Positions 1,639 to 53,281 of a stretch of 64,000 nt of DNA are shown piece by piece. The first letter of the stretch is position 1; each line of letters begins with the position of its first letter. Both the position numbers and the translations under genes were made by a program. The stretch covers positions 514,845-578,844 of the forward strand of contig CBFHKH010000001.1 in the NCBI GenBank assembly GCA_965656375.1, written 5' to 3'. Below the pieces are notes generated by a model. The model was not told the origin of the DNA. It saw only the letters and a list, made by a program, of their open reading frames with translations, and did no database searches. This DNA comes from Minisyncoccia bacterium. Lineage in GTDB: Bacteria > Patescibacteriota > Minisyncoccia > Phycocordibacterales > UBA9973.

Positions 1639-4219
<2,581 letters not shown>

Positions 4220-37502: not shown

Positions 37503-40500
37503 TTACTTATTATCTTTTTCTTTTATACCACGTATTTGTTTTGCAAACTCTGCTTCCATAACTACAATTGAGTCCAACAAGAATGCTTTTATGTCTTTAT
37601 CTTTATTCTCAGGAATTTCTGTATATTCACGATATTTTTCATCTATATACGCCTTTTCAGGATCTCCTGTCTTAAGCGTAAAGTAACCCTTAAAATTAAA
37701 GTATCTTTCTACTCCCTTTCGATACGATTTCATTAATCGTGGGTCACTCATTACTCGATCGACAAGTTCTTTTGTAAGAGCAGTGTTTTCTCTGAGTTCT
37801 TCAAGTGTGACTTTTGTTTGCTTTTTCTTTACCTCATCGTGTGCATGCAATAAGGCAGACATGAATTCCTTCATTGACTGATATCTATCCTTTGGTTCAG
37901 GACTCATGCCTTTTTTGATTACTTCCTTGATTGGAGATGGGACTGTACCCGGGAACCTCATTTTTCCTGATAAATGAATTTTTTTGTATTCTTCCATTCG
38001 TTCAGATGCTTTCATATCCTTAGTTTCCTTTTCAATATCGTGAGGCCACTTATTTGTGATAAACCTATACAAGTTAGCTGAAGCTGCATAGACATCAACT
38101 GTTTTATCGAAACTTTTCTTTGCCTCAAATAATTCTGGGGCCATAGTAAATCTATTTCCACGAGCATAATCTCGCATTGATGTTTTTTGTGAACCTTGAA
38201 CAATAGCTGCACCATCAAGATCTGTTATTTTCAAATTATTTCTACTTAAGATTATATTACTTGGAGAAATATCTACATTAATTACACCCGCATCGTTGAG
38301 TGAATCAACTGCTTGAGATGTTTTCATAGTTGTCGCGATTGAATCATCAAGAGACAATCTTCTATTATTTAAATATGTTTGAAGATCCATATCTCCTGCT
38401 TCATATACTCTGTATGTTTTACCGTTTACTTCAAAAGTATCCATTGGTAATAATACATTTCGATTCTTATATCCCTTCTTTTTCAAGAAAGATTCAGGCG
38501 TATTATCTCCCCAGTAATGAGATTCCTTTAGTCCATTGAAATAATCTGTGTCTATCTCTTTTATAACTAAAAGTTTGTCTTGTCCTGGCTTATAACCCAA
38601 AGAAACCTTTCCTGTTTCAGTATTAGATAGTACAAAGTCTTTTGAGATTATATATGCACCTACACTTTCTTTATTTTCTGAATTTATAACTTCATTTACG
38701 TTTTTAACCCTTGGCTTTGTATCATAACCTACTATTACTTCATCAGAAAAATTATTTAACTGTTGCGGCAAATTGGAAGCAGGTTGTTGCCGTATCTTTC
38801 TAAGTTCTTCGATTGCTTCAGGTTTTCCTGAGCGTGCATCACGCATTAATTTCCCTTCAACTTGATATCGCTTGAGTCCATCTAGAAGAGGTCTCATCTT
38901 CGTTATGACCATATCGCCTTTACTATCGAGTTTATATTTAATTCCAAGCCAGCCTATTGCTTTGCGATAATAAGGACTATCCTTTCCAATTTTTTCACCT
39001 GCTTCCCAACTATCTAGAGTTCGATTTATGATGTATTCGAATGTTTTTTTCAATTTTTCCTGAGTTTCCAGATCATCATAGTCTATGGCATCACCGTCTT
39101 CCATTGTTAGCTTTCGAATTTCATCGTCAAACGCACTGAATCCTTTGTCCCACTGCTCAACAGGGGCAAGGCCTGATTTAAACGCATCAATAGCTCGACG
39201 AGACGAGGTAAAGAGTCGTGTAGTAGTTCCAGCAAAACCAAGTGCTTTTTTATTATCACCTCTTGCACTTATTATTGCTTGTCCAATAGAGATATCCTCT
39301 CCACCCTGGAGGTTGTCTATATAGCCACCAATACCCGCAAACATACTTGATCTGTAGGCAGAGTTAGCTCCACTTGAAACCATACTGTTCGTTCTATGAC
39401 GACCGATAACACTGAGATACTGGAAGAGTCTCGTTCCTATATGGACGCCTGGGTACTTCTGGTATGACTCTGGATCCCAATCAAGCTGACCAAGGAGTGC
39501 ATCAACTTCTGGATTCTCTTCAAACTTATCGATAAATGTTTGGATATATCTTGGATCAATACCTTTATTGTCAGCGTCATTACTTACCATTATCAAGTCT
39601 GGTGCGTCTTTACCTCTTTCGTGCTGGCGTACGAGTGTTGCATCTGAAAGTATCTTTCTGATTCTTCCGATTTTTGCTTCATCATTTGGCAATGCTTCAT
39701 ACATGACTCTGACATTCATGTCAGGATAGTCAGTTTTAAACTTTTCGATCGCAGCCATCGTCTCATCTGCATTCAACGGATTGCCATCCTTATCATTCTC
39801 GGGATGATTCACATAGAGAACAATTTCAAAATCTTCTGGCTTAGCAGTTTGGTAGGTATAATTCTTTAACGATTCGTAGATATTATTTCCCTCTTGGTGA
39901 CCTGCGACAGGGATACAGATAGAAATCTTGCAGTCCTTGCCCATCTTTTCTGTTGATTGCGCGAGTTTCTCTATTCTCTCTCTGTATTCTTTATCTTGCT
40001 TTTCTAGATAAAGAGCAATTTCTTCAAAGTGATCCAATTTTGCGTTTGGATTTTCTTTCAAAGTCTTTGATCTCAACTTTTCGAATAATGCTAATTTCTC
40101 TGCAGGAGTAGCACCACCAGCGTAATTTAAATAGTATTCTATTTTGTTATTAACCGGAACGATCTCTGCAGCCTTAGGCTTTTTGTATCCGAGCGGTTCA
40201 AGTGGAGTACGAGGAACAAGGGGTATAAAGTATGGCGGTTCAGTATCAATTGGGATCTCGAGAGTGTTTATCGGGATCTCTTTTGGACCAGGGACAGTAA
40301 TCGGACCGTGGTCAGGACCTTCGTACGTAGCAAGTTCTCTGACATGCAGACGTCCATCTGCATCTGTACCGAATGTCTCAGAGACTTCGGCAAAGCGTCC
40401 TTGGAATACGGCATGACCTTTATCATCTACACTAAAGAATAATTTTCCTACCTCACTATTTGGATCGATAATAGCGTTACCGTTCGCATCTATATCAACT

Positions 40501-42716
40501 TCGAATGGATGCATCTGAGTATCTCTCGTTAGTGAGAGGAACATCTTGAGTCCACCATTTTTGACTTTTTCTTGAGCATCCACTGAAAGACTATCATGGA
40601 ATGAACCACCTTTTGTCATATGAGAAACATTGAACACAATCTTGCCATCAGCATTGACCCCTGTATTATTCTCTCCGCCCCACCAGAGTTTCAATTCATT
40701 CTTATCAAAAACTGGCTTTGGGGTATCGTTGTCATACCATCCGTCACGAGCTATGTGTGTAGTCTGGTCTGGATGAGAATCTATATATTCATTCGGATTC
40801 ATTGTCGTATCTCCTGCTCCTTCAATCAAAGATGTTTCATTATTAGCAATAATTCCATCTTCCCCAAGTCTATTGATGGACGCTTGATCCAAAGCACCGT
40901 TTGCATCTGTATGGAGTTCTATATGATCAGAGATGACATCATCACCACGCATAATGTTGAAAGTACCATCCCCATTATCTATCATCGTTGTTCCCTCTGG
41001 AAGCTTGAAGTGGCTTGGTATATCAAAACTCTTACTAGTAAGAATTTGGTCCTGCGCATTCTCCATAGAGATATGCTGGTTACCTGAAAGGAGATGATCT
41101 AATGGAGTCTGTACATGATTTGATGTACCTTCCCCTGTTATGCGATGATATATTCCTTCGAAAACTCCTTCTTTATGTCCACCCCACAGTCCATCAGCAA
41201 GAGCAATACTTTCTTGCACTGCAGCTCCTATAGTTACACCCATGAGTACAGTTTTACCCATCTTGAGCGCAGCACGGCGCAATTTTAAATTGCTGAACGC
41301 TTTATCTTGTTTTGTGATGCCCTTTTCACCGCCAAGGAATGCTTTTTCTGTAGTATCAACTTGTTTTGCTAAATAAGACTCAAAGGTTTCTCCATCTGGT
41401 AAACCATCTTTCAATGTAGCATTTACTTGTTTCGCTAACTCAACTTTTGCACGAGCAAGCAAGATAACCATTTCAGTGTGTTCTTTTTCAACATTTGCAG
41501 GGTTTGAATATCGAATGAGATCGATTTTCTTTTGGCTTGCAAGTGACTCACGAGCTTCGATATTGCCAATGTGACCTAAAACTGACTCTAATTCACTTTG
41601 AGAGATTTGCTTTGCTACATCATTACCATCTTCATCTTTTGTAAAAAGTGATTCTCGGAGTGCCTTCATTAATACTTCTGCACTTTCTGTCTGATATGCA
41701 TATTTCTCCATCGATTCACGACGTGGGCTGTCTGCTTCTATCACACCGCCTTTTGCCATTTCACGGCCGTGCTGTCTTCGCTCTTCAGCAAGGCGCTGCG
41801 ATTCATTTGCAGCGGCAAGTACACCAGATGCAACTGCCGTACCTCCAAATGTCACCATGTGTGAGACTTTGCTTTTCATGAACATCTTTCCTGTCCCTGC
41901 TGCTACAGTATAGGCAAGAGCAACCGCTGTCGATAATGTCGCAGGATTGATGAATCTTCCAATCTTAGTTTTTTTGATTCCGGTGACAGTCTTGTCGATC
42001 CAGTTACTTTTCGCTTCTGTCTTAATACTACTTTTTGCCTTGCCGACAATTACATTGAAATCAAGATCAAGCTCTTCGAGCTTTGCCCCGTGTTCTACAG
42101 CAAGTTTGGCATTTTTAGCCATTTCAAAAAGATTACTTGCGTATATATTTGAACCCGTAACAAAAGAGTCTCCTATTGTATTAAAAATTTTAACCTTTTC
42201 TGAATTGAATGAATCTTCATTGATATCACCTTTTGCGTAATCAGAAATAAGTTTCTTTATATCTGCTTTTGTCTGGGCTGTCTTTGGATCAGTTTCTTCG
42301 AGTGTTTTTTTCTCTTCTCCAACTTTCTTGTTAACTGCTTCTTCATATTCTGACGCAAAGCGCTCTGTGATAGCTTCCATCGCTCTATCATGGGATTGTT
42401 TATCTTTCTCTACTGCAGAGTAAATATTATCTGACTTGAAGATTTCATCTCGAGCTTTGTCTAATGCTTTCTGTCTATAATACCCATCCATGTAGGTATG
42501 CTTCCAAAGTTTTTTCCAGAAACCAGCTTTGCCTTTTGCTTCAGTCATTGCTGCATCAGCAGCATCGCGAGCTTCCATTTCGGCCAAATGAGTCGCATCA
42601 ACAATTACGAGCTTTTGTTTTAAAGCTTCTAATGCTTTATTTTTTATTTCCTCACTTGTTTGCGGATTTTCAATTGTATCCGGCTTACTATATAGAGTAG
42701 GTGATTCAATTGGCAT
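37503..42716 (-). CDS. giant membrane protein (1737 aa): N-terminal coiled-coil/TM region, GT-A glycosyltransferase-like domain, C-terminal eukaryotic-like protein kinase domain
   Basis: GT2-like start ISICIPVAG...NIYESL and DxD motif SNDADNKG. Kinase subdomains are present: LLVIKEI (VAIK-like), VINVDISPSNIIL (HRDxKPxN-like), KITDLDG (DFG-like), TMAPELF (APE), DVYAASANLY. Confidence 0.8.
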   Translation of the reverse strand: MPIESPTLYSKPDTIENPQTSEEIKNKALEALKQKLVIVDATHLAEMEARDAADAAMTEAKGKAGFWKKLWKHTYMDGYYRQKALDKARDEIFKSDNIYSAVEKDKQSHDRAMEAITERFASEYEEAVNKKVGEEKKTLEETDPKTAQTKADIKKLISDYAKGDINEDSFNSEKVKIFNTIGDSFVTGSNIYASNLFEMAKNAKLAVEHGAKLEELDLDFNVIVGKAKSSIKTEAKSNWIDKTVTGIKKTKIGRFINPATLSTAVALAYTVAAGTGKMFMKSKVSHMVTFGGTAVASGVLAAANESQRLAEERRQHGREMAKGGVIEADSPRRESMEKYAYQTESAEVLMKALRESLFTKDEDGNDVAKQISQSELESVLGHIGNIEARESLASQKKIDLIRYSNPANVEKEHTEMVILLARAKVELAKQVNATLKDGLPDGETFESYLAKQVDTTEKAFLGGEKGITKQDKAFSNLKLRRAALKMGKTVLMGVTIGAAVQESIALADGLWGGHKEGVFEGIYHRITGEGTSNHVQTPLDHLLSGNQHISMENAQDQILTSKSFDIPSHFKLPEGTTMIDNGDGTFNIMRGDDVISDHIELHTDANGALDQASINRLGEDGIIANNETSLIEGAGDTTMNPNEYIDSHPDQTTHIARDGWYDNDTPKPVFDKNELKLWWGGENNTGVNADGKIVFNVSHMTKGGSFHDSLSVDAQEKVKNGGLKMFLSLTRDTQMHPFEVDIDANGNAIIDPNSEVGKLFFSVDDKGHAVFQGRFAEVSETFGTDADGRLHVRELATYEGPDHGPITVPGPKEIPINTLEIPIDTEPPYFIPLVPRTPLEPLGYKKPKAAEIVPVNNKIEYYLNYAGGATPAEKLALFEKLRSKTLKENPNAKLDHFEEIALYLEKQDKEYRERIEKLAQSTEKMGKDCKISICIPVAGHQEGNNIYESLKNYTYQTAKPEDFEIVLYVNHPENDKDGNPLNADETMAAIEKFKTDYPDMNVRVMYEALPNDEAKIGRIRKILSDATLVRQHERGKDAPDLIMVSNDADNKGIDPRYIQTFIDKFEENPEVDALLGQLDWDPESYQKYPGVHIGTRLFQYLSVIGRHRTNSMVSSGANSAYRSSMFAGIGGYIDNLQGGEDISIGQAIISARGDNKKALGFAGTTTRLFTSSRRAIDAFKSGLAPVEQWDKGFSAFDDEIRKLTMEDGDAIDYDDLETQEKLKKTFEYIINRTLDSWEAGEKIGKDSPYYRKAIGWLGIKYKLDSKGDMVITKMRPLLDGLKRYQVEGKLMRDARSGKPEAIEELRKIRQQPASNLPQQLNNFSDEVIVGYDTKPRVKNVNEVINSENKESVGAYIISKDFVLSNTETGKVSLGYKPGQDKLLVIKEIDTDYFNGLKESHYWGDNTPESFLKKKGYKNRNVLLPMDTFEVNGKTYRVYEAGDMDLQTYLNNRRLSLDDSIATTMKTSQAVDSLNDAGVINVDISPSNIILSRNNLKITDLDGAAIVQGSQKTSMRDYARGNRFTMAPELFEAKKSFDKTVDVYAASANLYRFITNKWPHDIEKETKDMKASERMEEYKKIHLSGKMRFPGTVPSPIKEVIKKGMSPEPKDRYQSMKEFMSALLHAHDEVKKKQTKVTLEELRENTALTKELVDRVMSDPRLMKSYRKGVERYFNFKGYFTLKTGDPEKAYIDEKYREYTEIPENKDKDIKAFLLDSIVVMEAEFAKQIRGIKEKDNK

Positions 42717-43352: not shown

Positions 43353-44471
43353 ATGAAAAAAACAAAGAAAGCCGCAACGGCTTCACAACAGACACCCCCT
43401 TTAAACAGGGCGCAAACTCTGGAAGTATTTAATTCCAGGAAGAAAGCCATTAACGACAGGATGGCAATACATGTTGAAGACATCACCAAGCTTAAAAAAC
43501 CTTTACCGGAAATGAGCTTGGAGTTGTACGGACACAAAGAATACGACCTTAAAAAGGGGTACAAATTTCTTTTAACGATTATTGTTTTACTGGTAGTTTC
43601 AGCCTTAGAAATTCCTTTGAATGCAACCGGACTTGAAATGCTGGGCCGCCCTCAAATGACGACCACATTCATGGCAATAGGCCTTGCATGTGCGCTAGGC
43701 TTACTTGCTGAAGGCGCTGGTTTTTCATTCAGAAGAGGAGTTGTTAAAAAAAGCTTTATTGGAATTTTTGGTGCACTATTTTGTGCCGGCGTAGCCTTAA
43801 CCATCATCTATTGGTTATCAGAATTTCGAGTGGCATATTTCCATCGTATGAAGTTTAACAAAGAGGACATCAGCATAACCGGGCAGGTGATATTTTCAAT
43901 TGCCGTTTGGTGTGCAGGTGTAATTGGAGTTTACTTTTTAACCAGTGGTGTAAAAAACTTACATCTGGAAAAAGTATTTAACAGCAAGCGTAAATCCATC
44001 AGAATTTTACAGAAAAAACATGCAGCTTTGGAAGCCGAAAAAGATAAACTTAAAGCTGAAAATGCTGTAAATATGGTTGCTGCAGAAGCATACGAAACAA
44101 ACATTAAGCATGAAAAAACAAAAGCTGAAAATTTGAAAAATGAGCTAGCAATAGCAACATTAAAAGACAAGGAAAATGCAGCAATGCAGCAGACAGCGCA
44201 GGAGAAAAACAAAATCACTCAGCAGAAAAATGCCTTTTATGAAAAACACACAGAATTATTAGGTATTAAGACCCGCGTTATGGAAATTGCGGGTAAGATT
44301 GAAGACAAAAGTGAGTTAAACCTCAATGAAGACTATGTATCATCAATGGACCAGGCTACTACCTTGATCGAAGAGATGAAGGAACTGGCATCCGTGGATA
44401 TACCTGGTACAAAAGAAAGCTTCGAACAAGCTGAACAAATTTTTAACTCATTAAAAAACCTCGCATCATGA
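43353..44471 (+). CDS. membrane protein (N-terminal cytoplasmic region, 4 TM, long C-terminal coiled coil)
   Basis: 372 aa with hydrophobic helices at about 70-210 and a Lys/Glu/Ala-rich heptad region at 215-372; higher GC and different codon usage than neighbours; no Shine-Dalgarno sequence. Confidence 0.5.
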   Translation: MKKTKKAATASQQTPPLNRAQTLEVFNSRKKAINDRMAIHVEDITKLKKPLPEMSLELYGHKEYDLKKGYKFLLTIIVLLVVSALEIPLNATGLEMLGRPQMTTTFMAIGLACALGLLAEGAGFSFRRGVVKKSFIGIFGALFCAGVALTIIYWLSEFRVAYFHRMKFNKEDISITGQVIFSIAVWCAGVIGVYFLTSGVKNLHLEKVFNSKRKSIRILQKKHAALEAEKDKLKAENAVNMVAAEAYETNIKHEKTKAENLKNELAIATLKDKENAAMQQTAQEKNKITQQKNAFYEKHTELLGIKTRVMEIAGKIEDKSELNLNEDYVSSMDQATTLIEEMKELASVDIPGTKESFEQAEQIFNSLKNLAS

Positions 44472-45163
44472 AAAGTGTAATTATCATGGCACTGGTGGCT
44501 GCAACAGCTACCCTGCTATCCTGCGGATCAGAAACACCAAAAACAAAAAATGATATCTACATTCTTGTAGATAATACCGACAAGACAAAATACTCCGGTG
44601 ATATTGTTTCATCAGATGCTATATTGGACCTTGTTGGCAAGAAGGGTACTGTGAAATTCAAAGCCCTTACTGGTGTTTCCCTGAATGAAGAATCGGAAAT
44701 TTCCTTACTGGTAGATGGATCCACTAGCGTTCTGCGCCAGGATCAGATCGACCCGTTCGTTGAAAAGTTGGACTCCCTTAAGAAAAAATACCTCGGTGTT
44801 ACAACTGAGTATAAAAAATCAAGCTTATGGGAACCGGTATGCCAAGCTCTGAATGAGCTTAGTGCATCCGCAGTTACTGAGCCCGGCGAAAAAACGATGA
44901 TCATATTATCGGATATGCTGGAAAACTCAGACTACTGCAACTTTTATAAGGATATGTCGATAGAAACAGTGAAGGAACAGTTGGCAAAATCAGGCTCAGC
45001 ACTTCCCAAAAATCCAAAGGTTAAGGTAATCATCATCTTTAATCCCAACCAGAACATTGAAAAAGAACGGCTGCACAAGAAAGCCATGAATTACTGGGAA
45101 AAGCTTTTTAAAGAAGCAGGGATCAAATTTGTTGTAAAAGCCAATCTTGGCGAAAAAGTGTAG
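44468..45163 (+). CDS. lipoprotein
   Basis: Signal peptide plus lipobox ATLLSCGS; its ATG overlaps the upstream stop (ATGA). Confidence 0.5.
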   Translation: MKSVIIMALVAATATLLSCGSETPKTKNDIYILVDNTDKTKYSGDIVSSDAILDLVGKKGTVKFKALTGVSLNEESEISLLVDGSTSVLRQDQIDPFVEKLDSLKKKYLGVTTEYKKSSLWEPVCQALNELSASAVTEPGEKTMIILSDMLENSDYCNFYKDMSIETVKEQLAKSGSALPKNPKVKVIIIFNPNQNIEKERLHKKAMNYWEKLFKEAGIKFVVKANLGEKV

Positions 45164-45165
45164 TC

Positions 45166-45660
45166 ATGGGAAACAAGGAAGCAAAAGAGCAGTTAAAAGG
45201 TTTTCTTTTAAAACTCAAGGTATTTAAAATGTACCTCGAACAAACCAAGAGTAAATTCACTGAAATAGCGTATTATGAAAAATTTATTTTTGGCTTTCAT
45301 CCTCCGAGCCCCATTCCTATTAATATATCAGAAGAGTTTTGGAATAGTTTGAGTTCTACTCAGAAGTTGTTACTTGAATTCAGGAAATCATTCAATGAAA
45401 ATGATCTTCCCGAAGACATACGGCAAGCTTTTGTGAATATGACGATTACTATAGTTCAAAATAAATTTGATGTTGATAAAGGAGTGATCAAGATTGGTGG
45501 ATTGGGGAAACCATGGTGGAAAGAAGTTGGGTATGTGAAAAAGAATTGGGGACCGATGGAATATGATGTAAAAGTTATATATTCACAAGAAGCATATTCG
45601 AATATTAGCTACTACTTTGTATTGATCGGCCAGATAGAGCAACTGGAAGCCATGTGTTAA
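45166..45660 (+). CDS. hypothetical cytoplasmic protein
   Basis: 164 aa, starting 2 nt after the lipoprotein stop; no recognisable motifs. Confidence 0.4.
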   Translation: MGNKEAKEQLKGFLLKLKVFKMYLEQTKSKFTEIAYYEKFIFGFHPPSPIPINISEEFWNSLSSTQKLLLEFRKSFNENDLPEDIRQAFVNMTITIVQNKFDVDKGVIKIGGLGKPWWKEVGYVKKNWGPMEYDVKVIYSQEAYSNISYYFVLIGQIEQLEAMC

Positions 45661-45750
45661 AAACATTTTCTGCTTTAACTGTCATTACGTAATTATTAAG
45701 ATCTGGAATTAAAACCTCCAGATCTTTTTTTATGTCTAGATTTGTGATAA

Positions 45751-45915
45751 CGCCTTGGCACGTCTGCCTCCAGCTTGGACATGATGTCGTCACGAATAAT
45801 TCCTCGCTGTCGCTGCGGAATTTTCTCGATCCTGTTTGGACTCGTCGTCACAAGTATTTTTCTGGTGAAAAATCTCGCGACCCCGCCTCGGCACGTCTGC
45901 CTCCGGCTTGGACAT
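45751..45915. repeat. degenerate tandem copies of an approx 55-bp repeat family
   Basis: cgccttggcacgtctgcctccagcttggacat (45751-82) and cgcctcggcacgtctgcctccggcttggacat (45884-915), plus a related copy ctgctgaaaaattccgcgaccccgtctcggctcgtcagcctccgacc at 49681-49740. Confidence 0.6.
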
Positions 45916-45962
45916 TTAAAAAAACGTAATGGGTAATTACGTTTTTTTAAATGTCCACCCGC
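45913..45962. terminator. long perfect hairpin (22-bp stem) acting as a bidirectional terminator next to the tRNA 3' end
   Basis: TGGACATTTAAAAAAACGTAAT-gggta-ATTACGTTTTTTTAAATGTCCA. Confidence 0.6.
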
Positions 45963-46027
45963 TTGGATTCGAACCAAGGACCCCAGAGGTATAAGCTCTG
46001 TGCTCTAACCAACTGAGCTACGGGTGG
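45952..46027 (-). tRNA. tRNA-Ile with apparent anticodon UAU
   Basis: CCACCCG-TA-GCTC-AGTTGGTTA-GAGC-A-CAGAG-CTTATAC-CTCTG-GGGTC-CTTGG-TTCGAAT-CCAAG-CGGGTGG-A; positions 34-36 read TAT. Confidence 0.7.
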
Positions 46028-46078
46028 ATGCGTGTTACTACTATATAGTATAGTTTTTTCTTCTGCAATACGCGGACG

Positions 46079-47989
46079 TTACACGTTCACTATCGTATCT
46101 TTTGTTTTTGGAAGAATACCGTTTAGTGTTATGAGTTTGTTGTATTCGTCTTGTTCGAGAGTTTCAACTTCCACAAGTCGAAGTGCAATCGCATCAAGAA
46201 CTTTTTTATTATCTGTGAGGACTTTATTCGCAACTGCGAGAGCGTTATTCATGATCTTTGATACTTCAGCATCTATGAGGGCACTCACACGCTCAGAATA
46301 CTCTTGATCATTTACTCCACGACCAAACATTGTGCGGCCTCCATCTGATTCGAGTGCAATCGGACCAATTTCATCACTCATACCCCAGCGTGTAACCATC
46401 GCTCGAGCCATACTCGTAGCAACCTGAAGATCATTCGAAGGACCAGTTGTAATATCGCCAAAGATCATAGTCTCTGCCGCATACCCTCCCATCGCCATTG
46501 CAATGTCATCAAGGAATTCTTTCTTGCTTTGAAGCCTACGCTCTTCGAGTGGAAGTTTGAGTGTATATCCGCCTGCAGAACCACGAGAAACGATAGAAAC
46601 TTTGTGCACTGGATCAGCGTGCGGAAGTACCGATGCGACAAGCGCATGTCCTGCCTCATGATACGCAGTGATTTCCTTTTCTTTCTTTGAGAGTAAGTGG
46701 CTCTTTCGTTCCGGACCCATCATGACTTTTTCGATAGAACGAATGAGGTCAAATTGCGAGACTTTCTTGCGATCTTCACGCGCAGCAAGTATCGCACCTT
46801 CATTCATAAGGGAATAGAGATCAGCTCCAGAGAATCCGGGGGTACGTTCTGCGATGACTTTCAGGTTTACATCTTCTGCAAAAGGCTTCTTGTGAGAATG
46901 AATCTTGAGTATCTCTTCTCGATCAGCACGATCAGGAAGATCAAGCATTACACGGCGATCAAAACGTCCTGGTCGAAGAAGTGCCGGATCAAGGACATCA
47001 GAGCGGTTTGTTGCTGCCATAACGATCACTTTTTCATTTGGTTCAAATCCATCCATCTCCACGAGTATTTGGTTGAGTGTCTGTTCGCGTTCATCATTAC
47101 CTCCCCCAACTCCAGATCCACGCACACGTCCAACAGCATCGATCTCGTCTATGAAAATGATTGCAGGAGCTGCTTTCTTTGCCATTTTGAACAAGTCGCG
47201 CACGCGAGATGCTCCGACACCGACAAACATTTCTACGAATTCAGAACCAGAGAGATGGAAGAATGGTACACTCGCCTCTCCAGCGACAGCTCGAGCAAGG
47301 AGTGTCTTACCAGTACCAGGATTACCAGTGAGAATAACTCCCTTTGGAATCCGTGCTCCAATCTCAAGAAACTTTTTCGGATTTCTAAGAAAGTCGACGA
47401 TTTCTTTAAGTTCTTCTTTTGCTTCCTTTGCTCCAGCTACGTCTTTGAATGTTACTTTATTATTCTTGTCATTCGGGTCAGTGATGCGAGCTTTGGACTG
47501 TCCAAATGTAAACGCTTGCATCCCCTGGCCTTTGACTTGGCGTGTCAGCATCCAGACAAAGAATATAACAAGTAGTACTGGTAAAAGGAACGGGAGGATA
47601 TTGAGAAGCCAATATCCAAATCCGGATTCATCTTTTACTTCAATTGGAGTAGTAGCAAGCTGTGCTGGAGTTACACCGTAATTGAAAAGTGTTTCCGTAA
47701 GAGAGCTTTCGGTTTCCTTTTTTGCCGTACCCGTAGTATCGTCCTTGAAAGTAACTGTGATCTCTTCTCCCGCGACATCGATTTTGTTTATTGTGCCTTC
47801 TGTAACGCTCTTTGCTACATCCGAAATAGTGAGCTTTTTAACACTTGTAGCAGGCTGCGTAACCAATGAGTAAATAAGAGTAATGCCTATAAATACAAAT
47901 AGTGCAATGCCTATTTGGCTGCCGATTTTTGGGATTTTCTTTGGTTGTTGAGGTTTTTTTTGTTGAGCCATAGTAGGAGTATTATACAT
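46079..47989 (-). CDS. ftsH: ATP-dependent zinc metalloprotease FtsH
   Basis: N-terminal TM pair, AAA Walker A GPPGTGKT, second region of homology, and zinc motif HEAGHA. Confidence 0.95.
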
Positions 47990-48059
47990 GAATAAGGGGG
48001 TAAATAGAAATAAGCCCGACTTTTAAAAATCGGGCTTATTAAAAATATATTGAAAAAGT

Positions 48060-48776
48060 TTAAAATCCTCTACGCCGGTATGGCTTAAGTGCTTGCGATT
48101 CTGCTGGATATTTTTTCTTTAACCATTTCATGAGAAAGTGCGTTAAGATACTGTAAAGTATAAGTATTGTAATGGTATCTGAAATAAAACTTGGCAAATA
48201 TTCCCAAGATACCCAATTATAAAGATTATATCCAAAAAGGTTGTCAACGAATAAAGCAGCTAAAATAACTATGGAAAAAATTAAAAAGAATATAATTCTT
48301 GTAGGGACACATGGTGCATATTCGACATGACCATGTGTTTTGTATTCCAAGCGTACTGCCAGCCATCGTAAGAAGAATGCTACCAGCATCCACATGAACA
48401 AATAGATAACATATGTATTTGGAACTCTTTGCTCTACACCAACTGAATTTTCAGGGTATATATACGGAGTGTTGTTATCTGATGAAAATGCAAGGCTTTT
48501 CTTTGTAATCTCTGGTATTTTACGGATCCAAAATAATCCTAATGGAAACATATTCGGTTTAAAAACCCAAACAGTAGTAACTGATGAACCGGTTTGCAAT
48601 ATCTTTTTAGCCTCTTCTAAAGTAGAAGTGCCAATTCCAGTTAGAAGTGTATCTTTTATAAGTGTATATTTTACCATTACACTTCCTTCCTTTTTAAGGT
48701 ATGTAGAATCTTTTTGTTGTGCATTGCTTGAAAAGAAACCAAGTAATACGATAACCACTAATAGAGTCTTTTTCAT
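48060..48776 (-). CDS. membrane protein with Bacteroidetes-style signal peptide
   Basis: MKKTLLVVIVLLGFFSSNAQ... followed by several TM helices; unknown family. Confidence 0.45.
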   Translation of the reverse strand: MKKTLLVVIVLLGFFSSNAQQKDSTYLKKEGSVMVKYTLIKDTLLTGIGTSTLEEAKKILQTGSSVTTVWVFKPNMFPLGLFWIRKIPEITKKSLAFSSDNNTPYIYPENSVGVEQRVPNTYVIYLFMWMLVAFFLRWLAVRLEYKTHGHVEYAPCVPTRIIFFLIFSIVILAALFVDNLFGYNLYNWVSWEYLPSFISDTITILILYSILTHFLMKWLKKKYPAESQALKPYRRRGF

Positions 48777-49002
48777 GTGTATAAAGTTTTAGTTTTTGAG
48801 TTTAGGTGATCTCTACTCCCCCGATGCGAGGAACACAGATCACCCAACAAGAAAAATTAAAACTATGTGTCAAAGAAGAATTATAGTGAAACACTATAAC
48901 ACCTAGGTATGTTTGTCAAGTTAAGGCACCTGGCCATTTGATTATTTTTAGAATACTTGTATGATGGGATCAAAACAACACTCACCAATAAAATTGAATA
49001 TT

Positions 49003-49608
49003 ATGGAAGAGAATAAAAACTCAACTAATATCGAGAAAGAGTTTAAAAATCTGATCTATGTAAATGAGTATGTAAAGACTCTCTCTTATCTAAAACTAAA
49101 ACCTCTCTTCGGGGTTATGCAATGTAATTCTTTTTTTGATAATGAACAATTAAGCTTACATAAAAAGAACGCGACGTTGCGCATTCGATTCAGTAATGGA
49201 GTTCGTGAACTGACTTTGAAGGAAGATGCTGATGATGGCAGACTGGAGACAAATTATAGTCCGTTATCCGACAAACAATTTGCAGATCTTATAATTGAAG
49301 GGATCATTCCAAAAAGTGATATTTTGACACGACTTCAACACTCAGGAGTAAAGGGTCCATATTGGTATCAAGGTGAGATGATCACCAATCGAATAGAGAT
49401 ATCATACAAAGGATGCAAACTTGCCATCGACCATGCTAAATATTTGGGCACGGAAGATTATGAGATTGAGGTTGAAAAGGATAACGAGAAAGTTAATCAT
49501 AAAAAAGTAGCAAAAAATCTACTTGAAAACCTTGGTATACCTGTACGAAAAGTAAAAGGTAAGAGGAAACGTTTCTTTGAGTTTAAATTACGAACCGAAC
49601 TAGTTTAA
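49003..49608 (+). CDS. CYTH-domain protein (triphosphate tunnel metalloenzyme family)
   Basis: N-terminal NIEKEFK (ExExK signature) and about 200 aa; start placed at MEENKN. Confidence 0.55.
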   Translation: MEENKNSTNIEKEFKNLIYVNEYVKTLSYLKLKPLFGVMQCNSFFDNEQLSLHKKNATLRIRFSNGVRELTLKEDADDGRLETNYSPLSDKQFADLIIEGIIPKSDILTRLQHSGVKGPYWYQGEMITNRIEISYKGCKLAIDHAKYLGTEDYEIEVEKDNEKVNHKKVAKNLLENLGIPVRKVKGKRKRFFEFKLRTELV

Positions 49609-49626
49609 GAAATGATAATAGAGAGG

Positions 49627-49660
49627 AAGGCAAATGCTTTCCTCTTTTTTTTGTGGAACT
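49627..49660 (+). terminator. rho-independent terminator
   Basis: GAGGAAGGCA-aa-TGCTTTCCTC followed by T8. Confidence 0.6.
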
Positions 49661-49672
49661 GGGCGGAGTTGA
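49652..49672. repeat. 21-bp direct repeat duplicating the tmRNA 3' end (distal att site of an ssrA-integrated element)
   Basis: tgtggaactgggcggagttga is identical at 49652-49672 and at 52419-52439, the latter being the 3' end of ssrA. Confidence 0.7.
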
Positions 49673-50212
49673 GTCACTGATATTTTTCTGCTGAAAAATT
49701 CCGCGACCCCGTCTCGGCTCGTCAGCCTCCGACCGTTCAACTCCTATCCCTACTTACCCCATATACCCAAAAAGCCTGCCATCCGAGGCAGCCTTTTATT
49801 GGTATTGTGGACTACCCCAGATTAAGGTACGAACACAAAAAATCATCAAATTCCTCTCCCTTACAAAAACACAAACCCATTGCTTGGGATGAAATCGAGA
49901 AAGAATTGTTCGTCTTAGAAGAGATTCTAAAATCTGATTCTTCTGAAGATGATCCTTTTACTTCTTCTGTATTTCCTCCATAGGCTTTTCAGGTTTGTTT
50001 TCGAGCTGCCAGAAGAAGGCCTCTACAACAATATCAGCTAAGATGCCTATTTGCTCATCTTCGGTGATATCCGGATTTCGTAGCCTAGCTATCATATCTT
50101 CTAGCTCATATCTTACAACTGTATCCATATCCACCGGTTATACCAGAATTTGCAGCATATGCAAATTCCCCGCCCTTACTAGCTGTATCATTAATTTTTA
50201 TAATTACACTAT

Positions 50213-50453
50213 GAACAAACGAAAAGAGATTGTTCCAAACAATTTGAAAGAGTATCGATTGAAAGCAGGGCTAACACAGAAGGAAGTTGCGAAATTACTT
50301 TGCTTACAATGTGAAGATCGCCTGTCTCATTGGGAAAAAGGACAAGCTGTTCCTTCTATCAAAAATATTATTAAGCTTTGTGGTATCTATCAAACCACTT
50401 TTGAAGAAGTATTTAATGTTCTTAAAAAACAAAATCCAAAACTAAAAATATAA
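50213..50453 (+). CDS. XRE-family HTH regulator
   Basis: MNKRKEIVPNNLKEYRLKAGLTQKEVAKLL...; about 80 aa HTH_XRE. Confidence 0.6.
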
Positions 50454-50754
50454 TCGAAAGGATAATAGGAATAGCCTTTAAACAAAAAATTATTGTAAAA
50501 TATTTTTTAACTCCCGGCTGATTCAAAAAATCTATGCGAAGATTAGCCGGATTGAGAAAAGTTTCTGGAGTAAGAACGCTAAAAACAGATGCATATACGC
50601 CGAATATTGCAGAGAAGGTTGCATATTCCTTATTTAAACGAATGGCTGCAATAATAGTGACTGCTAATGGAATCAATGAGAGAAAGCAAATTTCAAGGAA
50701 CTTAAAAAATCCTTTCTTTGCTTGAGCTTCTGAGAGTGGTGGAGTATATGACAT
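50422..50754 (-). CDS. small membrane protein
   Basis: 110 aa with two or three TM helices; weak call. Confidence 0.3.
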   Translation of the reverse strand: MSYTPPLSEAQAKKGFFKFLEICFLSLIPLAVTIIAAIRLNKEYATFSAIFGVYASVFSVLTPETFLNPANLRIDFLNQPGVKKYFTIIFCLKAIPIILSIIFLVLDFVF

Positions 50755-50763
50755 AAAATATTT

Positions 50764-51594
50764 TTATCTTGATAGCTGAGTAATTGCAGCCTGCAAAACC
50801 TGCCAGCAGATTTTTGCAGTATGTTCATCAGGATTAAAATTCGATGACATTTGTGCATATGGGTGAATGTAATTCCTAAAATCACGCAAGGCATGGCTAA
50901 ACTTCTTCACATCTTCACCAAGTAAATTAATATCCCTAGCAACATTTATAAAATCATTTAAAGCCCAATTTGGAAATTGCTTTACAGTTCCTCCTCTATC
51001 CCTTGGGCTAAGAGAACTTCGATTAAAATTTTGAGGATCCTTCGTTGCTATTCCAAGTAAAATTCCTTCCAATGTACTCCCGCAAAGAAAAATAACGGCT
51101 AAAGATGCTTTAGCATTGAGGCATTTAGCAATCTCATCCATTCTCTGTTCAAGAACACTGGTTATGCTACTGTCCAATCCTAGTTTATGAATAGAAACAT
51201 TCTTAAATTCTTTGCTAATAAAATCCTCTTCTTTCATCTCCGGGGTTTGGGTTTTAATACCAAGCAATTTATTAGCCACTGACCTGCCTGCCACCACTAA
51301 ATCATCGGGGAAATCTGACTTTTTTAAATTGCCTAATAGGATTTGATTTTCAATATACTCAATAAGCTTCGAAATCGATTTTCCAACCAAGGGATCATCA
51401 GCAACTTTCCAAAAGCCCCTGAGTCGATTAGCTTTGGAGCCACTCGCATAATTATATTTGTCATCATAAATATTTATACCAACATCGTCCTGGAAAAACT
51501 CTCCCATTGTTCTATCAGTAAAATTTAAAACATAGCCAGTCATTTGGAAGAGTTTCTCTAATATCTGCTTTTCGTTGGTACCAAGATTTGCCAT
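50764..51594 (-). CDS. hypothetical protein with a possible C-terminal HEPN-type Rx4-6H motif
   Basis: 276 aa; C-terminal ALRDFRNYIHPYAQ; no other recognisable motif. Confidence 0.35.
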   Translation of the reverse strand: MANLGTNEKQILEKLFQMTGYVLNFTDRTMGEFFQDDVGINIYDDKYNYASGSKANRLRGFWKVADDPLVGKSISKLIEYIENQILLGNLKKSDFPDDLVVAGRSVANKLLGIKTQTPEMKEEDFISKEFKNVSIHKLGLDSSITSVLEQRMDEIAKCLNAKASLAVIFLCGSTLEGILLGIATKDPQNFNRSSLSPRDRGGTVKQFPNWALNDFINVARDINLLGEDVKKFSHALRDFRNYIHPYAQMSSNFNPDEHTAKICWQVLQAAITQLSR

Positions 51595-51599
51595 TATGC

Positions 51600-52034
51600 T
51601 TAGTTTAATAAAGAGTCAAAATCAACAATTGCTTTTCTAAATATGTTTTCAATAGCCTTTACCGTCTCCTCATTCACGCTGGCTGGGCTGCTCGCCACCC
51701 ACTTTGCCAAGTTATACAATTCTTGGGGAGATAACGATAACCATTTTTCGTTCTTCCCCAGGAATATAAGAAGAGACATGACAGCCACACGCTTATTCCC
51801 ATTCTGAAACGGATGATTTTTAATCATGAGATAAAACAAGATTGCAGCTTTACTAATCAATCCTTTATACAAATCTCCTTTGTATGTCTGGAACGGTGCC
51901 AGGATGCATTGTTCAAGGGCCCGAGGGTAGCGAGTTGAAAACTCAGGAATTGGCTCTCCCCATTCTAAATATTTTCGAGCAAGTTCATGTGCAGAATATT
52001 CGATTTCTTCCATTGTCAGCCGTTTGGTTTTCAT
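51600..52034 (-). CDS. doc: Doc/Fic family toxin (death-on-curing type)
   Basis: Motif HPFQNGNKR matches the Doc-type Fic motif HxFx(D/N)GNKR; 144 aa. Confidence 0.75.
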   Translation of the reverse strand: MKTKRLTMEEIEYSAHELARKYLEWGEPIPEFSTRYPRALEQCILAPFQTYKGDLYKGLISKAAILFYLMIKNHPFQNGNKRVAVMSLLIFLGKNEKWLSLSPQELYNLAKWVASSPASVNEETVKAIENIFRKAIVDFDSLLN

Positions 52035-52036
52035 AC

Positions 52037-52306
52037 CTATTCTCGGCCAAGCATACGAATTGTTTCTCCGTAGTCTTTAATGGTTTTATCTACTAAGGCT
52101 TTTATTTCCTGTTTATCAATTTCTGTGAGTGGTCGGGTATCAAGATGCTTAATGACTTCCTCATGAGGAATAACATAATTACGACCAATCTTATGTGCCT
52201 TAATTGATCCATCTTTGATCCAGCGAAAAACTGTAACCCGGGTTACATCGAGAATTTTAGCGACTTCAGAAGTTGAAAAATAATTTTGACCATGTAACGA
52301 TTCCAT
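52037..52306 (-). CDS. HTH (excisionase/AlpA-like) DNA-binding protein, probable antitoxin partner of Doc
   Basis: 89 aa; STSEVAKILDVTRVTVFRWIKDG is a MerR/excisionase-type HTH; 3-nt gap to doc. Confidence 0.55.
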   Translation of the reverse strand: MESLHGQNYFSTSEVAKILDVTRVTVFRWIKDGSIKAHKIGRNYVIPHEEVIKHLDTRPLTEIDKQEIKALVDKTIKDYGETIRMLGRE

Positions 52307-52418
52307 AGGCCTATGGTAACATATGTTACATAACTATGCAAGAGTTGTTACATTTCCTATTTATTAGGATGCTATGAAATAAGCCTTTTTTAGAAATATA
52401 ACTTGTTATTTCTAACAA

Positions 52419-52816
52419 TGTGGAACTGGGCGGAGTTGAACCGCCATGCAAAAGATGTTCATAGATGAATCTACATGTGTATCATGTTCGATTGGGTTTA
52501 AATATGAAAGCTAGAGAACACGCAATATACTTTCACACCGAGCTTTTCATTGTCGAGATCTCTCGCAAGCGGTGAGAGATCCGTAACCCGATAAATTATG
52601 CCTCTCCTCTGTATCGGATGTCGAGAAGAGAGACACCTGACTGGCTTAAATTAAGCGAGTGCAGGAGCGAAGTTGAAACCAAATGCGTTAGCAAATGGTG
52701 ACTTCACCATAGCGACTTTGTTTGCACGTAGTCTTTTGGAAGTAGTTTAGCGAGATACCTCCGCACTCGACACGCACATCTATGAGGACGAACCTTTGTC
52801 GAAGCCCGTCAGTCCC
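52419..52816 (-). ncRNA. ssrA: tmRNA (SsrA)
   Basis: 5' GGGACUGACGGGCUUCGAC... pairs with 3' ...GGCGGUUCAACUCCGCCCAGUUCCACA (tRNA-like T-arm and acceptor). The internal frame GCU AAC GCA UUU GGU UUC AAC UUC GCU CCU GCA CUC GCU UAA gives a tag near ANAFGFNFAPALA. Adjacent to smpB. Confidence 0.8.
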
Positions 52817-52837
52817 ATGTATTTTACTTTCAAAGAA

Positions 52838-53281
52838 TTACCGTTTATATTCTCTTCGGATCTCCCGATCCGTATCACGTTTCTTTATGGTCTCTCGTTT
52901 GTCGTAATTTTTCTTTCCTTTTACAACTGCGAGTTCTACCTTAATGAGGCGCCCCTTACTATACAATGAGAGTGGGACCAAGGTCAAACCCTTTTTCTTG
53001 TCCTCATCTGCCAAGCGTTGTATTTGTTTCTTTGAAAGAAGAAGCTTCCTCGTACGAGTTGGATCATAGTCTGTAGGGGTATTACCAACTTGATAGGGCG
53101 GAATCTGCATGTTCATAAGGAACACTTCCCCACCACGAACAATTGCGAACGCACCTAGAAGTATAGCCCGCCCACCCTTGATAGACTTTACTTCAAATCC
53201 AAAAAGCTCAATACCTGCCTCGTATTTTTCAATCACTTCAAAATTAAAGTGAGCTTTTCTATTGTCAATCAATACGGTCAT
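52838..53281 (-). CDS. smpB: SsrA-binding protein
   Basis: 147 aa, ...KAHFNFEVIEKYEAGIELFGFEVKSIKGG..., with a basic C-terminal tail. Confidence 0.9.
   Translation of the reverse strand: MTVLIDNRKAHFNFEVIEKYEAGIELFGFEVKSIKGGRAILLGAFAIVRGGEVFLMNMQIPPYQVGNTPTDYDPTRTRKLLLSKKQIQRLADEDKKKGLTLVPLSLYSKGRLIKVELAVVKGKKNYDKRETIKKRDTDREIRREYKR

Follow-up and report, generated by a model that had tools for sequence, protein, structure and literature searches.

A Doc/HEPN gene islet at ssrA of a Patescibacterium, bounded by a 21-bp direct repeat and an inverted-copy/spacer junction

The 64-kb stretch of DNA analysed here (contig CBFHKH010000001.1; the whole stretch is referred to as the window) was found to contain a full-length tmRNA gene, ssrA, on the minus strand, with smpB directly upstream (52838..53281, minus strand; Pfam SmpB, E 3.6e-52). 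Downstream of ssrA lies a segment, 49673-52418, enclosed by two direct copies of the last 21 nucleotides (nt) of the gene. Six genes are located between the two copies, encoding an HTH_17-family protein, a Doc-family toxin, a 276-aa protein of HEPN type, a small membrane protein, an XRE-family regulator and a short acidic protein. The smpB-ssrA neighbourhood is kept in relatives, and smpB belongs to the host backbone outside the island. The tmRNA gene extends over 52420(52418)-52816 as judged by ARAGORN (52420..52816, with the tag peptide ANKVAMVKSPFANAFGFNFAPALA) and Rfam RF00023 (108.9 bits, model positions 1-374). Its acceptor and T-arm are paired in the Rfam match, so that ssrA is intact despite the insertion. 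No compositional break was seen between the island and the window.

The 21-mer TGTGGAACTGGGCGGAGTTGA is present in the window as two exact copies, 49652-49672 and 52419-52439, both on the plus strand, without mismatches and 2,767 bp apart from copy to copy. It is the reverse complement of the last 21 nt of ssrA and reads TCAACTCCGCCCAGTTCCACA on the ssrA strand, covering the T-loop from its second base, the 3′ strand of the T-stem, the 3′ strand of the acceptor, and the discriminator plus two bases (ending ACA). The proximal copy (attL core, 52419..52439, annotated on the minus strand) is the present, functional 3′ end of ssrA. The distal copy (attR core, 49652..49672, minus strand) is followed by a terminator hairpin (49620-49647, terminator scan) which it shares with a convergent CYTH-domain gene. 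No third site was found in the window even when three mismatches were allowed, none of 100 shuffles matched the 21-mer, and a search of IMG/VR gave 0 matches. In a metagenome collection it was present in seven contigs, in one copy each, where it invariably forms the 3′ terminus of an ssrA gene adjoining smpB. These results rule out a chance or dispersed repeat, and they bear out the original prediction (made from the letters of the window) both in the exact direct duplication of the tmRNA 3′ end and in its restriction to two sites. A tRNA-like gene on the plus strand at 49652-49760 was also considered, with negative results from ARAGORN and Rfam.

The relatives identified through SmpB were all Patescibacteria of the Paceibacteria/Parcubacteria group, the best two being 88 and 87% identical. 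The island proteins occur together on one 840-kb NCBI contig and on Logan contig L001 (L numbers denote the loci compared), identical across the region. Neither these proteins nor the two encoded between the island and ftsH were detected by tblastn in the smpB loci of 80 relatives, a search which did recover FtsH and TruB. Only ~200 bp separate ssrA from ftsH in L003, which of the relatives with downstream sequence is the closest, and in L091 ssrA, its terminator and the ftsH promoter form a bare, empty site. The corresponding distance in the window is 4.4 kb, made up of the 2.77-kb repeat-bounded segment, a CYTH-domain gene (48961-49608, plus strand) and a gene for a 238-aa membrane protein (48060-48776, minus strand). 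The latter two genes (48060-49608) appear as a second indel at the site, being absent from the 80 relatives' loci, where ssrA adjoins ftsH; no degenerate repeat or unit was found beyond them. The expectation of an empty ssrA site in related genomes was borne out, the cargo being absent from 80 loci and L091 being bare, with the reservation that no relative shares the CYTH flank.

The distal repeat was found to be the end of a larger unit. On the ssrA strand, a 9-nt sequence designated A′ (GGAGTTGAA, 49736..49744, minus strand, read from the sequence) is an inverted copy of TTCAACTCC in the T-loop and T-stem 3′ strand of ssrA, and it adjoins a structured spacer of 63 nt (49673..49735, minus strand) with two hairpins and the motif CGAGRCGGGGTCG. 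The spacer ends in GTGAC, and the displaced direct copy of the ssrA end (A) starts 0 nt past this pentamer. A sequence 85% identical to the spacer lies at 45847-45905 of the window, 45 nt downstream of tRNA-Ile(tat) and on the same strand. Further matches were obtained with nhmmer in six loci, where the spacer is co-oriented with, and located just downstream of, ssrA (L090, L007, and L050), tRNA-Ser (L030) or tRNA-Ile (L008), with one orphan copy in L006. The spacer family is present at seven or more loci in all.

In five units A′ repeats, in inverted orientation, the 3′ end of the gene that it follows and adjoins the 5′ end of the spacer, with 10-19 matched nt and 0-8 of 500 shuffles as good. 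Four of these five also have a displaced direct copy which starts right after the terminal GTGAC and 2-4 nt inside the T-loop, whereas that of L007 has decayed beyond significance. Hairpin 2 of the spacer was 93.5% paired over 10 instances, with compensatory changes in eight of its 14 pairs (0 of 500 shuffles), compared with 39-55% pairing in slid controls. As single strands the units are predicted to fold into a three-way junction with A′/A as the closing stem (z -3.2 to -4.0). No Rfam family matched the spacer or the unit. Two tmRNA genes missed by ARAGORN, at 7769-8165 in L007 and 10697-11104 in L050, were detected by Rfam at 96-104 bits.

Two catalytic RNAs were considered for the spacer and rejected. 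A hammerhead ribozyme (CUGACGAG ... GAA) was dismissed on its reversed 15.1/16.1 pair, open stem II and negative Rfam result. A group I intron in the tmRNA T-loop, as known in Bacillota (PMC13011429), was dismissed as the tmRNA is complete and the spacer is ~63 nt long and does not end in G. A search of IMG/VR with a 30-nt spacer core gave 0 matches, and a gapped spacer pattern gave 34, all of them chance matches in high-GC phage genes except one, L098. This is the first 3.3 kb of a 34.7-kb 'viral' contig (IMGVR_UViG_3300033463_005745), which at 2840-3319 carries a tandem array of at least three units, with A′ being TAGGGATTTGAA and the displaced copies CAAATCCCTCCC..., next to the host genes cysE, galE, cdd and a GDSL lipase gene.

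The frequency of such copies was assessed with the last 22 nt of each tRNA and tmRNA gene of the loci retrieved, which were searched for within 450 nt on either side. Among 77 genes of Patescibacteria, 20 had a direct copy of at least 9 nt downstream (13 of at least 12 nt) and 17 an inverted copy of at least 9 nt. The upstream controls gave five direct and four inverted copies of at least 9 nt and none of either kind at 12 nt or more. For 24 genes of other bacteria the downstream counts were one direct copy at each of the two lengths and one inverted copy of at least 9 nt, with upstream controls of 0 direct and three inverted at 9 nt or more and none of either kind at 12 nt or more. Where both copies occur the layout is constant, in that the gene is followed by a terminator, in most cases a perfect palindrome, then by A′ at 15-101 nt, the spacer, and A at 96-265 nt. 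Several spacer families occupy the equivalent position, one of them ending in TACTGAnnCTGTAAG. The original prediction had described the repeat as the classic footprint of integration into ssrA; the repeat is real, but its distal copy is the end of a stereotyped A′-spacer-A unit that is mostly cargo-less elsewhere. Since the unit is common without cargo, the repeat alone neither dates nor explains the arrival of the cargo.

The units also vary among close relatives. L091 has none, whereas L003, L092, L093, and L095 each have one cargo-less unit of ~200 bp, and in L094 the inverted copy is present with its direct copy undetected. A second, more decayed unit lies 0.54 kb further out in L050, and in general units farther from the gene are more decayed, as would be expected if new integrations at the gene push older units outward. 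Other gene sets were found in comparable positions. In L030 a cargo-less unit is followed by 2.4 kb with three genes and no recombinase, ending in spacer, GTGAC and displaced copy. This stretch and the 0.54-kb segment of L050 are further recombinase-less islets closed by spacer and displaced copy, and L035 has a one-gene islet at ssrA with a 24-nt bounding repeat of a different kind.

It could be argued that A′-spacer-A is a structured RNA of the host, or a processing or termination signal for tRNA and tmRNA 3′ ends, with the island merely lying inside it. The covarying hairpin, the abundance of the units and their fixed orientation downstream of genes would fit such a role, as would L003 and L007, in which the inverted copy and the palindromic terminator make one long hairpin with the gene 3′ end. 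This explanation is nevertheless considered very improbable, given the variable presence among close relatives, the decay of displaced copies with distance from the gene, the several unrelated spacer families at the equivalent position without an Rfam match, and the related spacer which also occurs upstream of ssrA in other inverted repeats (L014 and L029).

A second possibility is that an older cargo-less unit (ssrA-terminator-A′-spacer-A) was already in place and that 2.5 kb of cargo was inserted later, by an unrelated event, between the gene end and A′. Cargo-less units are frequent enough for this (20 of 77 genes), L090 has the window's spacer family at ssrA without cargo, and the gene module of the island is not linked to such units elsewhere. 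It is regarded as improbable, because the displaced copies of old units are decayed or split (L090, L007, and the tRNA-Ile unit of the window) whereas here 21 of 21 positions match, the cargo homology begins exactly at the repeat edge, and a second integration by the same route should have added a second unit, of which only one is present.

Several further units and spacer relatives were recorded. The spacer copy downstream of tRNA-Ile(tat) (45953-46027, minus strand) belongs to a second cargo-less unit of the window, 45750-45957. A perfect palindromic terminator with 22-bp arms (45909-45957) overlaps the tRNA end and is followed by the spacer (45847-45909, 85% identical to that at ssrA) and a decayed copy of the tRNA-Ile 3′ end (45826-45846, GACGAGTCCAAACAGGATCGA). 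Beyond these lie a partial copy of hairpin 2 ending in GTGAC (~45789-45846) and, at ~45750-45783, 31 nt in which the start of the spacer is partially repeated. A 1,737-aa open reading frame (ORF; 37503-42716, minus strand) is located a few kb past this unit, with three low-GC ORFs without an assigned function between them (43353-45660, plus strand); all of these could be further accessory DNA at the tRNA-Ile site. In L014 (3559-3624) and L029 (10508-10569) a spacer relative ending in GTAC was found between smpB and the 5′ end of ssrA, inside long inverted repeats which are not derived from tRNA 3′ ends and which in L014 include the first tmRNA bases; these positions indicate that the spacer family is not restricted to 3′ ends. 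In L003 (7655-7830), L092, L093, L094, L095, and L007 the palindromic terminator after ssrA is placed between the acceptor 3′ strand and its exact complement (for example CAGTTCCACA ... TGTGGAACTG). Gene end, terminator and A′ thereby form one perfect hairpin of 22-26 bp in these loci, and within A′ a conserved small hairpin, GCAAACTGCTTTGC, separates the acceptor portion from the T-arm portion.

A recombinase or its remnant was sought with tblastn and phmmer --max in region 44000-53000 and in all 123 ORFs of the window, using two tyrosine integrases, three large serine recombinases and one IS110 enzyme as queries, and only noise was returned. No integrase or large-serine-recombinase pseudogene was detected at any threshold in 49673-50200, which is a weak test for very divergent Xer-like enzymes. 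The absence of an integrase, as originally predicted, thus extends to integrase pseudogenes of the segment. The window has no integrase inside the element, as a tyrosine-integrase island would. A protein with Resolvase and Recombinase domains, as in large-serine-recombinase elements, was likewise not found here; it is present in L087, L088, L145, and L082.

The first two genes of the island are an apparent operon. An HTH_17/excisionase-family DNA-binding protein of 89 aa (52037..52306, minus strand; Pfam HTH_17, E 5.5e-13; TIGR01764, E 8.9e-13) is separated by 2 nt from a Doc-family toxin of Fic fold with 144 aa (51600..52034, minus strand). The toxin exceeded the cutoffs of TIGR01550 (51.8 bits against 38.65, E 8.4e-14) and Pfam Fic (45.1 bits against 24, E 1.8e-11), matched the PHROG Doc-like toxin (E 1.5e-17) and the 'death-on-curing family protein' PDB 9vzc_A (E 1.4e-6), and has HPFQNGNKR as its Doc-type motif HxFx(D/N)(A/G)NKR. 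Just upstream of the HTH_17 start the sequence reads as a palindrome, GTAACATATGTTAC (52317..52330), a likely operator of the pair, and a motif upstream of HTH_17, TGTAACAnnTGTTACA, is kept in L087, L088, L145, L146, and L147. A gene of the HTH_17 family encoding 89-95 aa lies directly upstream of Doc in six loci (these five and L001). By sequence family the protein is excisionase-like, as had been proposed, yet it is a conserved partner of Doc rather than of a recombinase, and it is a putative antitoxin or repressor of the operon.

The pair resembles Phd/Doc type II toxin-antitoxin (TA) systems, such as that with the P1 Doc, in the Doc motif, the small upstream DNA-binding partner and the upstream palindromic operator. 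It differs in that the partner is of HTH_17 (MerR/excisionase) type and not of the Phd/YefM family, and its neutralisation of the toxin is only putative. The functions suggested here for the cargo are predicted from family membership. Doc would act as a toxin of EF-Tu-kinase type in an autoregulated, TA-like HTH_17-Doc pair, giving post-segregational stabilisation or phage-triggered translation arrest, with the HTH_17 partner restraining it and probably also repressing the operon at the palindrome.

After the gene for the 276-aa protein (50764..51594, minus strand) the island encodes a membrane protein of 110 aa (50422..50754, minus strand), which has at least two hydrophobic segments (15-42 and 84-110) and no family match in profile searches. 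An XRE-family HTH_3 regulator of 80-81 aa (50211..50453, plus strand; Pfam HTH_3, E 5.6e-12) is convergent with the cargo genes and would control a divergent promoter. The promoter/operator region between it and the 58-aa ORF (50137..50178) shows 84-88% nucleotide identity to L087 16109-16151 and L088 4350-4382. The 58-aa acidic ORF (49958..50134, minus strand) was taken from the ORF list, the gene being called also in L001, and is followed by a bidirectional terminator (49776-49791, terminator scan). The Doc, upstream HTH, XRE and membrane-protein assignments of the original prediction were all found to be right.

Doc homologues numbered 3,838, and those with a source name were mostly from Patescibacteria. 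The HTH_17 and Doc proteins of L087, L088, L145, and L146 are 84-88% identical to those of the window. At the nucleotide level the HTH_17-Doc region of L087 and L088 is ~80% identical and arranged as in the window, and the homology starts at 52418, the base adjoining the proximal repeat. The cargo after Doc is different in L087, L088, and L145, consisting of a 202-aa protein and ThsB-TIR; in L147 a Schlafen/AlbA_2 protein occupies the slot. An XRE gene follows in L087, whose product is 58% identical to that of the window in the equivalent position. From this comparison, HTH_17-Doc and XRE enclose a defence slot whose content varies among the mobile elements of Patescibacteria. No tRNA genes or spacer units were found within 10 kb of the HTH_17-Doc modules of L087, L088, and L145-147. 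Directly upstream of HTH_17-Doc in L087 (6775-9289) is a BubE / ThiF(E1) / Prok-E2_E set for ubiquitin-like conjugation, which is probable defence cargo.

The company of this module elsewhere bears on another possible history, that of a larger integrative or conjugative element which decayed to the present island when it lost its recombinase and transfer genes through an internal deletion, so that the HTH_17-Doc-cargo-XRE arm was left between the att (attachment-site) repeats. In L087, L088, and L145 the module reads HTH_17-Doc-cargo-(XRE)-small ORF-large serine recombinase, and genes for TrwB/TraG-like, ArdC and methylase proteins lie close by. Three tyrosine recombinases are encoded near the module in L147, L082 has the order 276-aa gene, 58-aa ORF, HTH_3 and large serine recombinase, and streamlined genomes delete DNA readily. 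Such a history is judged rather unlikely. The recombinase searches gave no fragment at any threshold in 49673-50200 or elsewhere in the window, and the perfect 21-bp repeat argues for a recent event over long decay. The distal end is moreover the stereotyped unit of cargo-less sites and of other recombinase-less islets, an unlikely end-point for a random deletion, and large serine recombinases normally leave just a few shared bases and not 21. Both original alternatives, a decayed element or one mobilised in trans, find some support, the first in recombinase-bearing elements that carry the module elsewhere and the second in other small recombinase-less islets with the distal unit.

The 276-aa protein was found to have two domains, an N-terminal helical domain and a C-terminal domain with the four-helix up-down HEPN fold, in which the motif R237-x2-R240-N-Y-I-H244 is located. 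With the motif definition of PMC13017515 and PMC3710099, an Rx4-6H motif is present as R237-x6-H244. In 48 sequences R240, Y242, I243, H244, and P245 were invariant and R237 was at least 90% conserved. Pfam DUF4145 scored below threshold (17.6 against 23.1 bits), and a close homologue, P0031, carries a precomputed PF13643 match. The whole model gave no informative match against the PDB with Foldseek. The family is large, with 4,851 matches of which the top 120 (P0001-P0120) are 67-78% identical to the window protein and all unnamed. It is also uniform, its members, thousands of them in unrelated phyla, being ~70% identical over the full length. No source gives it a name, and neither NCBIfam nor PADLOC v2 includes it.

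Homologues of this protein occur as lone genes in defence islands or integrative elements, and the contigs of some, up to 3.7 Mb long, come from unrelated bacteria. Their neighbours include Gabija-like OLD+UvrD, ThsB-TIR, nSTAND, tyrosine integrases, large serine recombinases and type IV secretion system genes, and in the neighbourhoods examined they were never beside Doc. DUF4145 is counted among the HEPN families and in some proteins is joined to an AbiJ-type domain at the N-terminus (PMC3710099), and RAZR, a DUF4145 protein, is an abortive-infection RNase (PMC13017515). The window protein shares with such RNases (AbiJ-NTD1+DUF4145 and RAZR) a layout in which a non-catalytic N-terminal part precedes the HEPN domain with its conserved Arg and His, and like them it is found on its own in defence islands and on mobile elements. 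It differs in having an N-terminal domain without an assigned family or zinc finger and in its sub-threshold DUF4145 score.

The HEPN-like nature guessed from the RDFRNYIH motif is thus supported by the fold, by the conservation of Rx6H and by the context of the homologues. A functional companionship of the gene with Doc was not upheld, since elsewhere it stands alone in defence islands and never by Doc, for which reason it is read as independent of the toxin. The best reading is an AbiJ-like single-gene defence candidate, predicted to be a stand-alone abortive-infection RNase, which would cleave RNA.

Taking the locus as a whole, we favour with moderate confidence the explanation that 49673-52418 is a small recombinase-less integrative element (islet or cassette) which entered the T-loop-to-3′-end region of ssrA through site-specific recombination in a Patescibacterium of the Paceibacteria class. 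The bounding direct repeat equals the ssrA 3′ end at 21 of 21 positions, the target gene is intact and the segment is absent from relatives, subject to the reservation about the CYTH flank. Integration at the ssrA 3′ end, as had been predicted, is supported, the gene being preserved by a copy of its final 21 nt which the element carries. Under this model the proximal repeat would have been supplied by the element, and the distal repeat would be the original ssrA 3′ end, displaced 2.77 kb downstream. The cargo would be a module that travels on the mobile elements of the phylum, composed of HTH_17-Doc, a defence slot (here the AbiJ-like HEPN RNase and the membrane protein), XRE and the small ORF. 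The attachment site would be the distal unit, with its inverted target copy, two-hairpin spacer and direct copy, and we infer that cargo and unit arrived jointly. The recombinase would act in trans and might be a host Xer-like or other tyrosine enzyme, or one from a co-resident element. The predicted junction of the excised circle is ...CAGTGAC-TCAACTCCGCCCAGTTCCACA-TTGTTAGAAATAACAAG, and that of the empty site is ...GGCGGT-TCAACTCCGCCCAGTTCCACA-AAAAAAAGAGGAAAG.

A number of observations weigh against this explanation. Neither an excised or circular form nor a recombinase was seen, so that mobility in trans is something we infer. Units occur at ~26% of the sampled tRNA and tmRNA genes, and the ssrA unit could therefore pre-date the cargo. 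In L087, L088, L145, and L147 the module sits in larger recombinase-bearing elements, and the link between cargo and unit was seen only in the window. The A′ of the window has only 9 nt (plus GGG/CCC), compared with 17-19 nt in L050. Finally, no relative has the exact pre-insertion junction, with ssrA beside the CYTH gene, because the CYTH and 238-aa genes are themselves missing from the relatives.

For the favoured insertion, a specific route can be put forward tentatively, in which a single DNA strand carrying A′-spacer-A would take up a hairpin form imitating the double-stranded target. CTXphi attP and integron attC are known to use folded single-stranded attachment sites, and the classical model of a double-stranded attP does not predict an inverted, target-matched copy adjoining a spacer. 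The order gene(A)-cargo-A′-spacer-A is that which a single-strand exchange of the gene with a folded hairpin on a circular single strand would yield. By extension, it is possible, though doubtful, that Paceibacteria carry undescribed recombinase-less cassettes which target the T-loop-to-3′-end region of tRNA and tmRNA genes through a folded hairpin attachment site. The tRNA genes would then serve as integron-like platforms gathering empty units and small cassettes, with the Doc/HEPN islet as a loaded example.

Surveys by K. P. Williams are said to cover integration sites in tRNA and tmRNA genes. With tyrosine-integrase islands at such genes the window shares insertion at the ssrA 3′ end from the T-loop, a replacement 3′ end, a bounding direct repeat, accessory or defence cargo and outward-growing arrays. 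It differs in lacking an integrase gene, in its size of only 2.8 kb, and in the distal inverted core copy with its folded spacer. With integrative mobile elements exploiting Xer (IMEX) of the CTXphi type, and with integron attC cassettes, it has in common the lack of an own recombinase, inverted arms and a structured spacer at one junction, and small cassettes, some of them empty, in arrays. The CTXphi-type geometry was found in five independent A′/spacer/A units, with inverted arms at one junction and no recombinase in the element. The target in the window is the T-arm of tRNA and tmRNA genes, however, and not dif or attI, while a single-stranded intermediate is hypothetical and a role of IntI or Xer putative. 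An integron attC as such was rejected, as the heptamers are in reverse order on the ssrA strand, GTTGAAC ... ACTCAAC (GTTRRRY...RYYYAAC and not RYYYAAC...GTTRRRY), and there is no integrase.

Tycheposons reportedly insert at tRNA genes, giving rise to islands with partial tRNA repeats on their flanks, and are said to carry their own recombinase and replication genes, unlike the islet in the window; we know of no inverted-copy/hairpin unit in them. The tycheposons of Prochlorococcus are likewise integrative elements driving the plasticity of a streamlined genome (bioRxiv 10.1101/2020.12.28.424599). In the literature searched, nothing relevant was found on integration at tmRNA or tRNA genes of Patescibacteria or on hairpin attachment sites at tRNA genes.

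The island itself is ordinary, being one more small defence or TA islet at ssrA, whereas the architecture of its junction and the spread of the unit through the lineage are the unexpected and new part. None of the defence databases searched contains the family of the 276-aa protein, which has at least 4,800 members at ~70% identity from different phyla and lends itself readily to experimental testing. Even a Patescibacteria genome of ~0.84 Mb appears to gain defence genes, here a Doc TA-like pair and a HEPN candidate, through integration linked to tRNA and tmRNA genes. The unit flanks about a quarter of the tRNA and tmRNA genes sampled in the lineage and almost none in other bacteria, is under structural constraint, and bounds several recombinase-less gene sets. 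Should these units prove to be sites at which a recombinase acts in trans, they would add a third example of folded-DNA attachment sites and would account for gene exchange among streamlined episymbionts, in which classical mobile elements are few.

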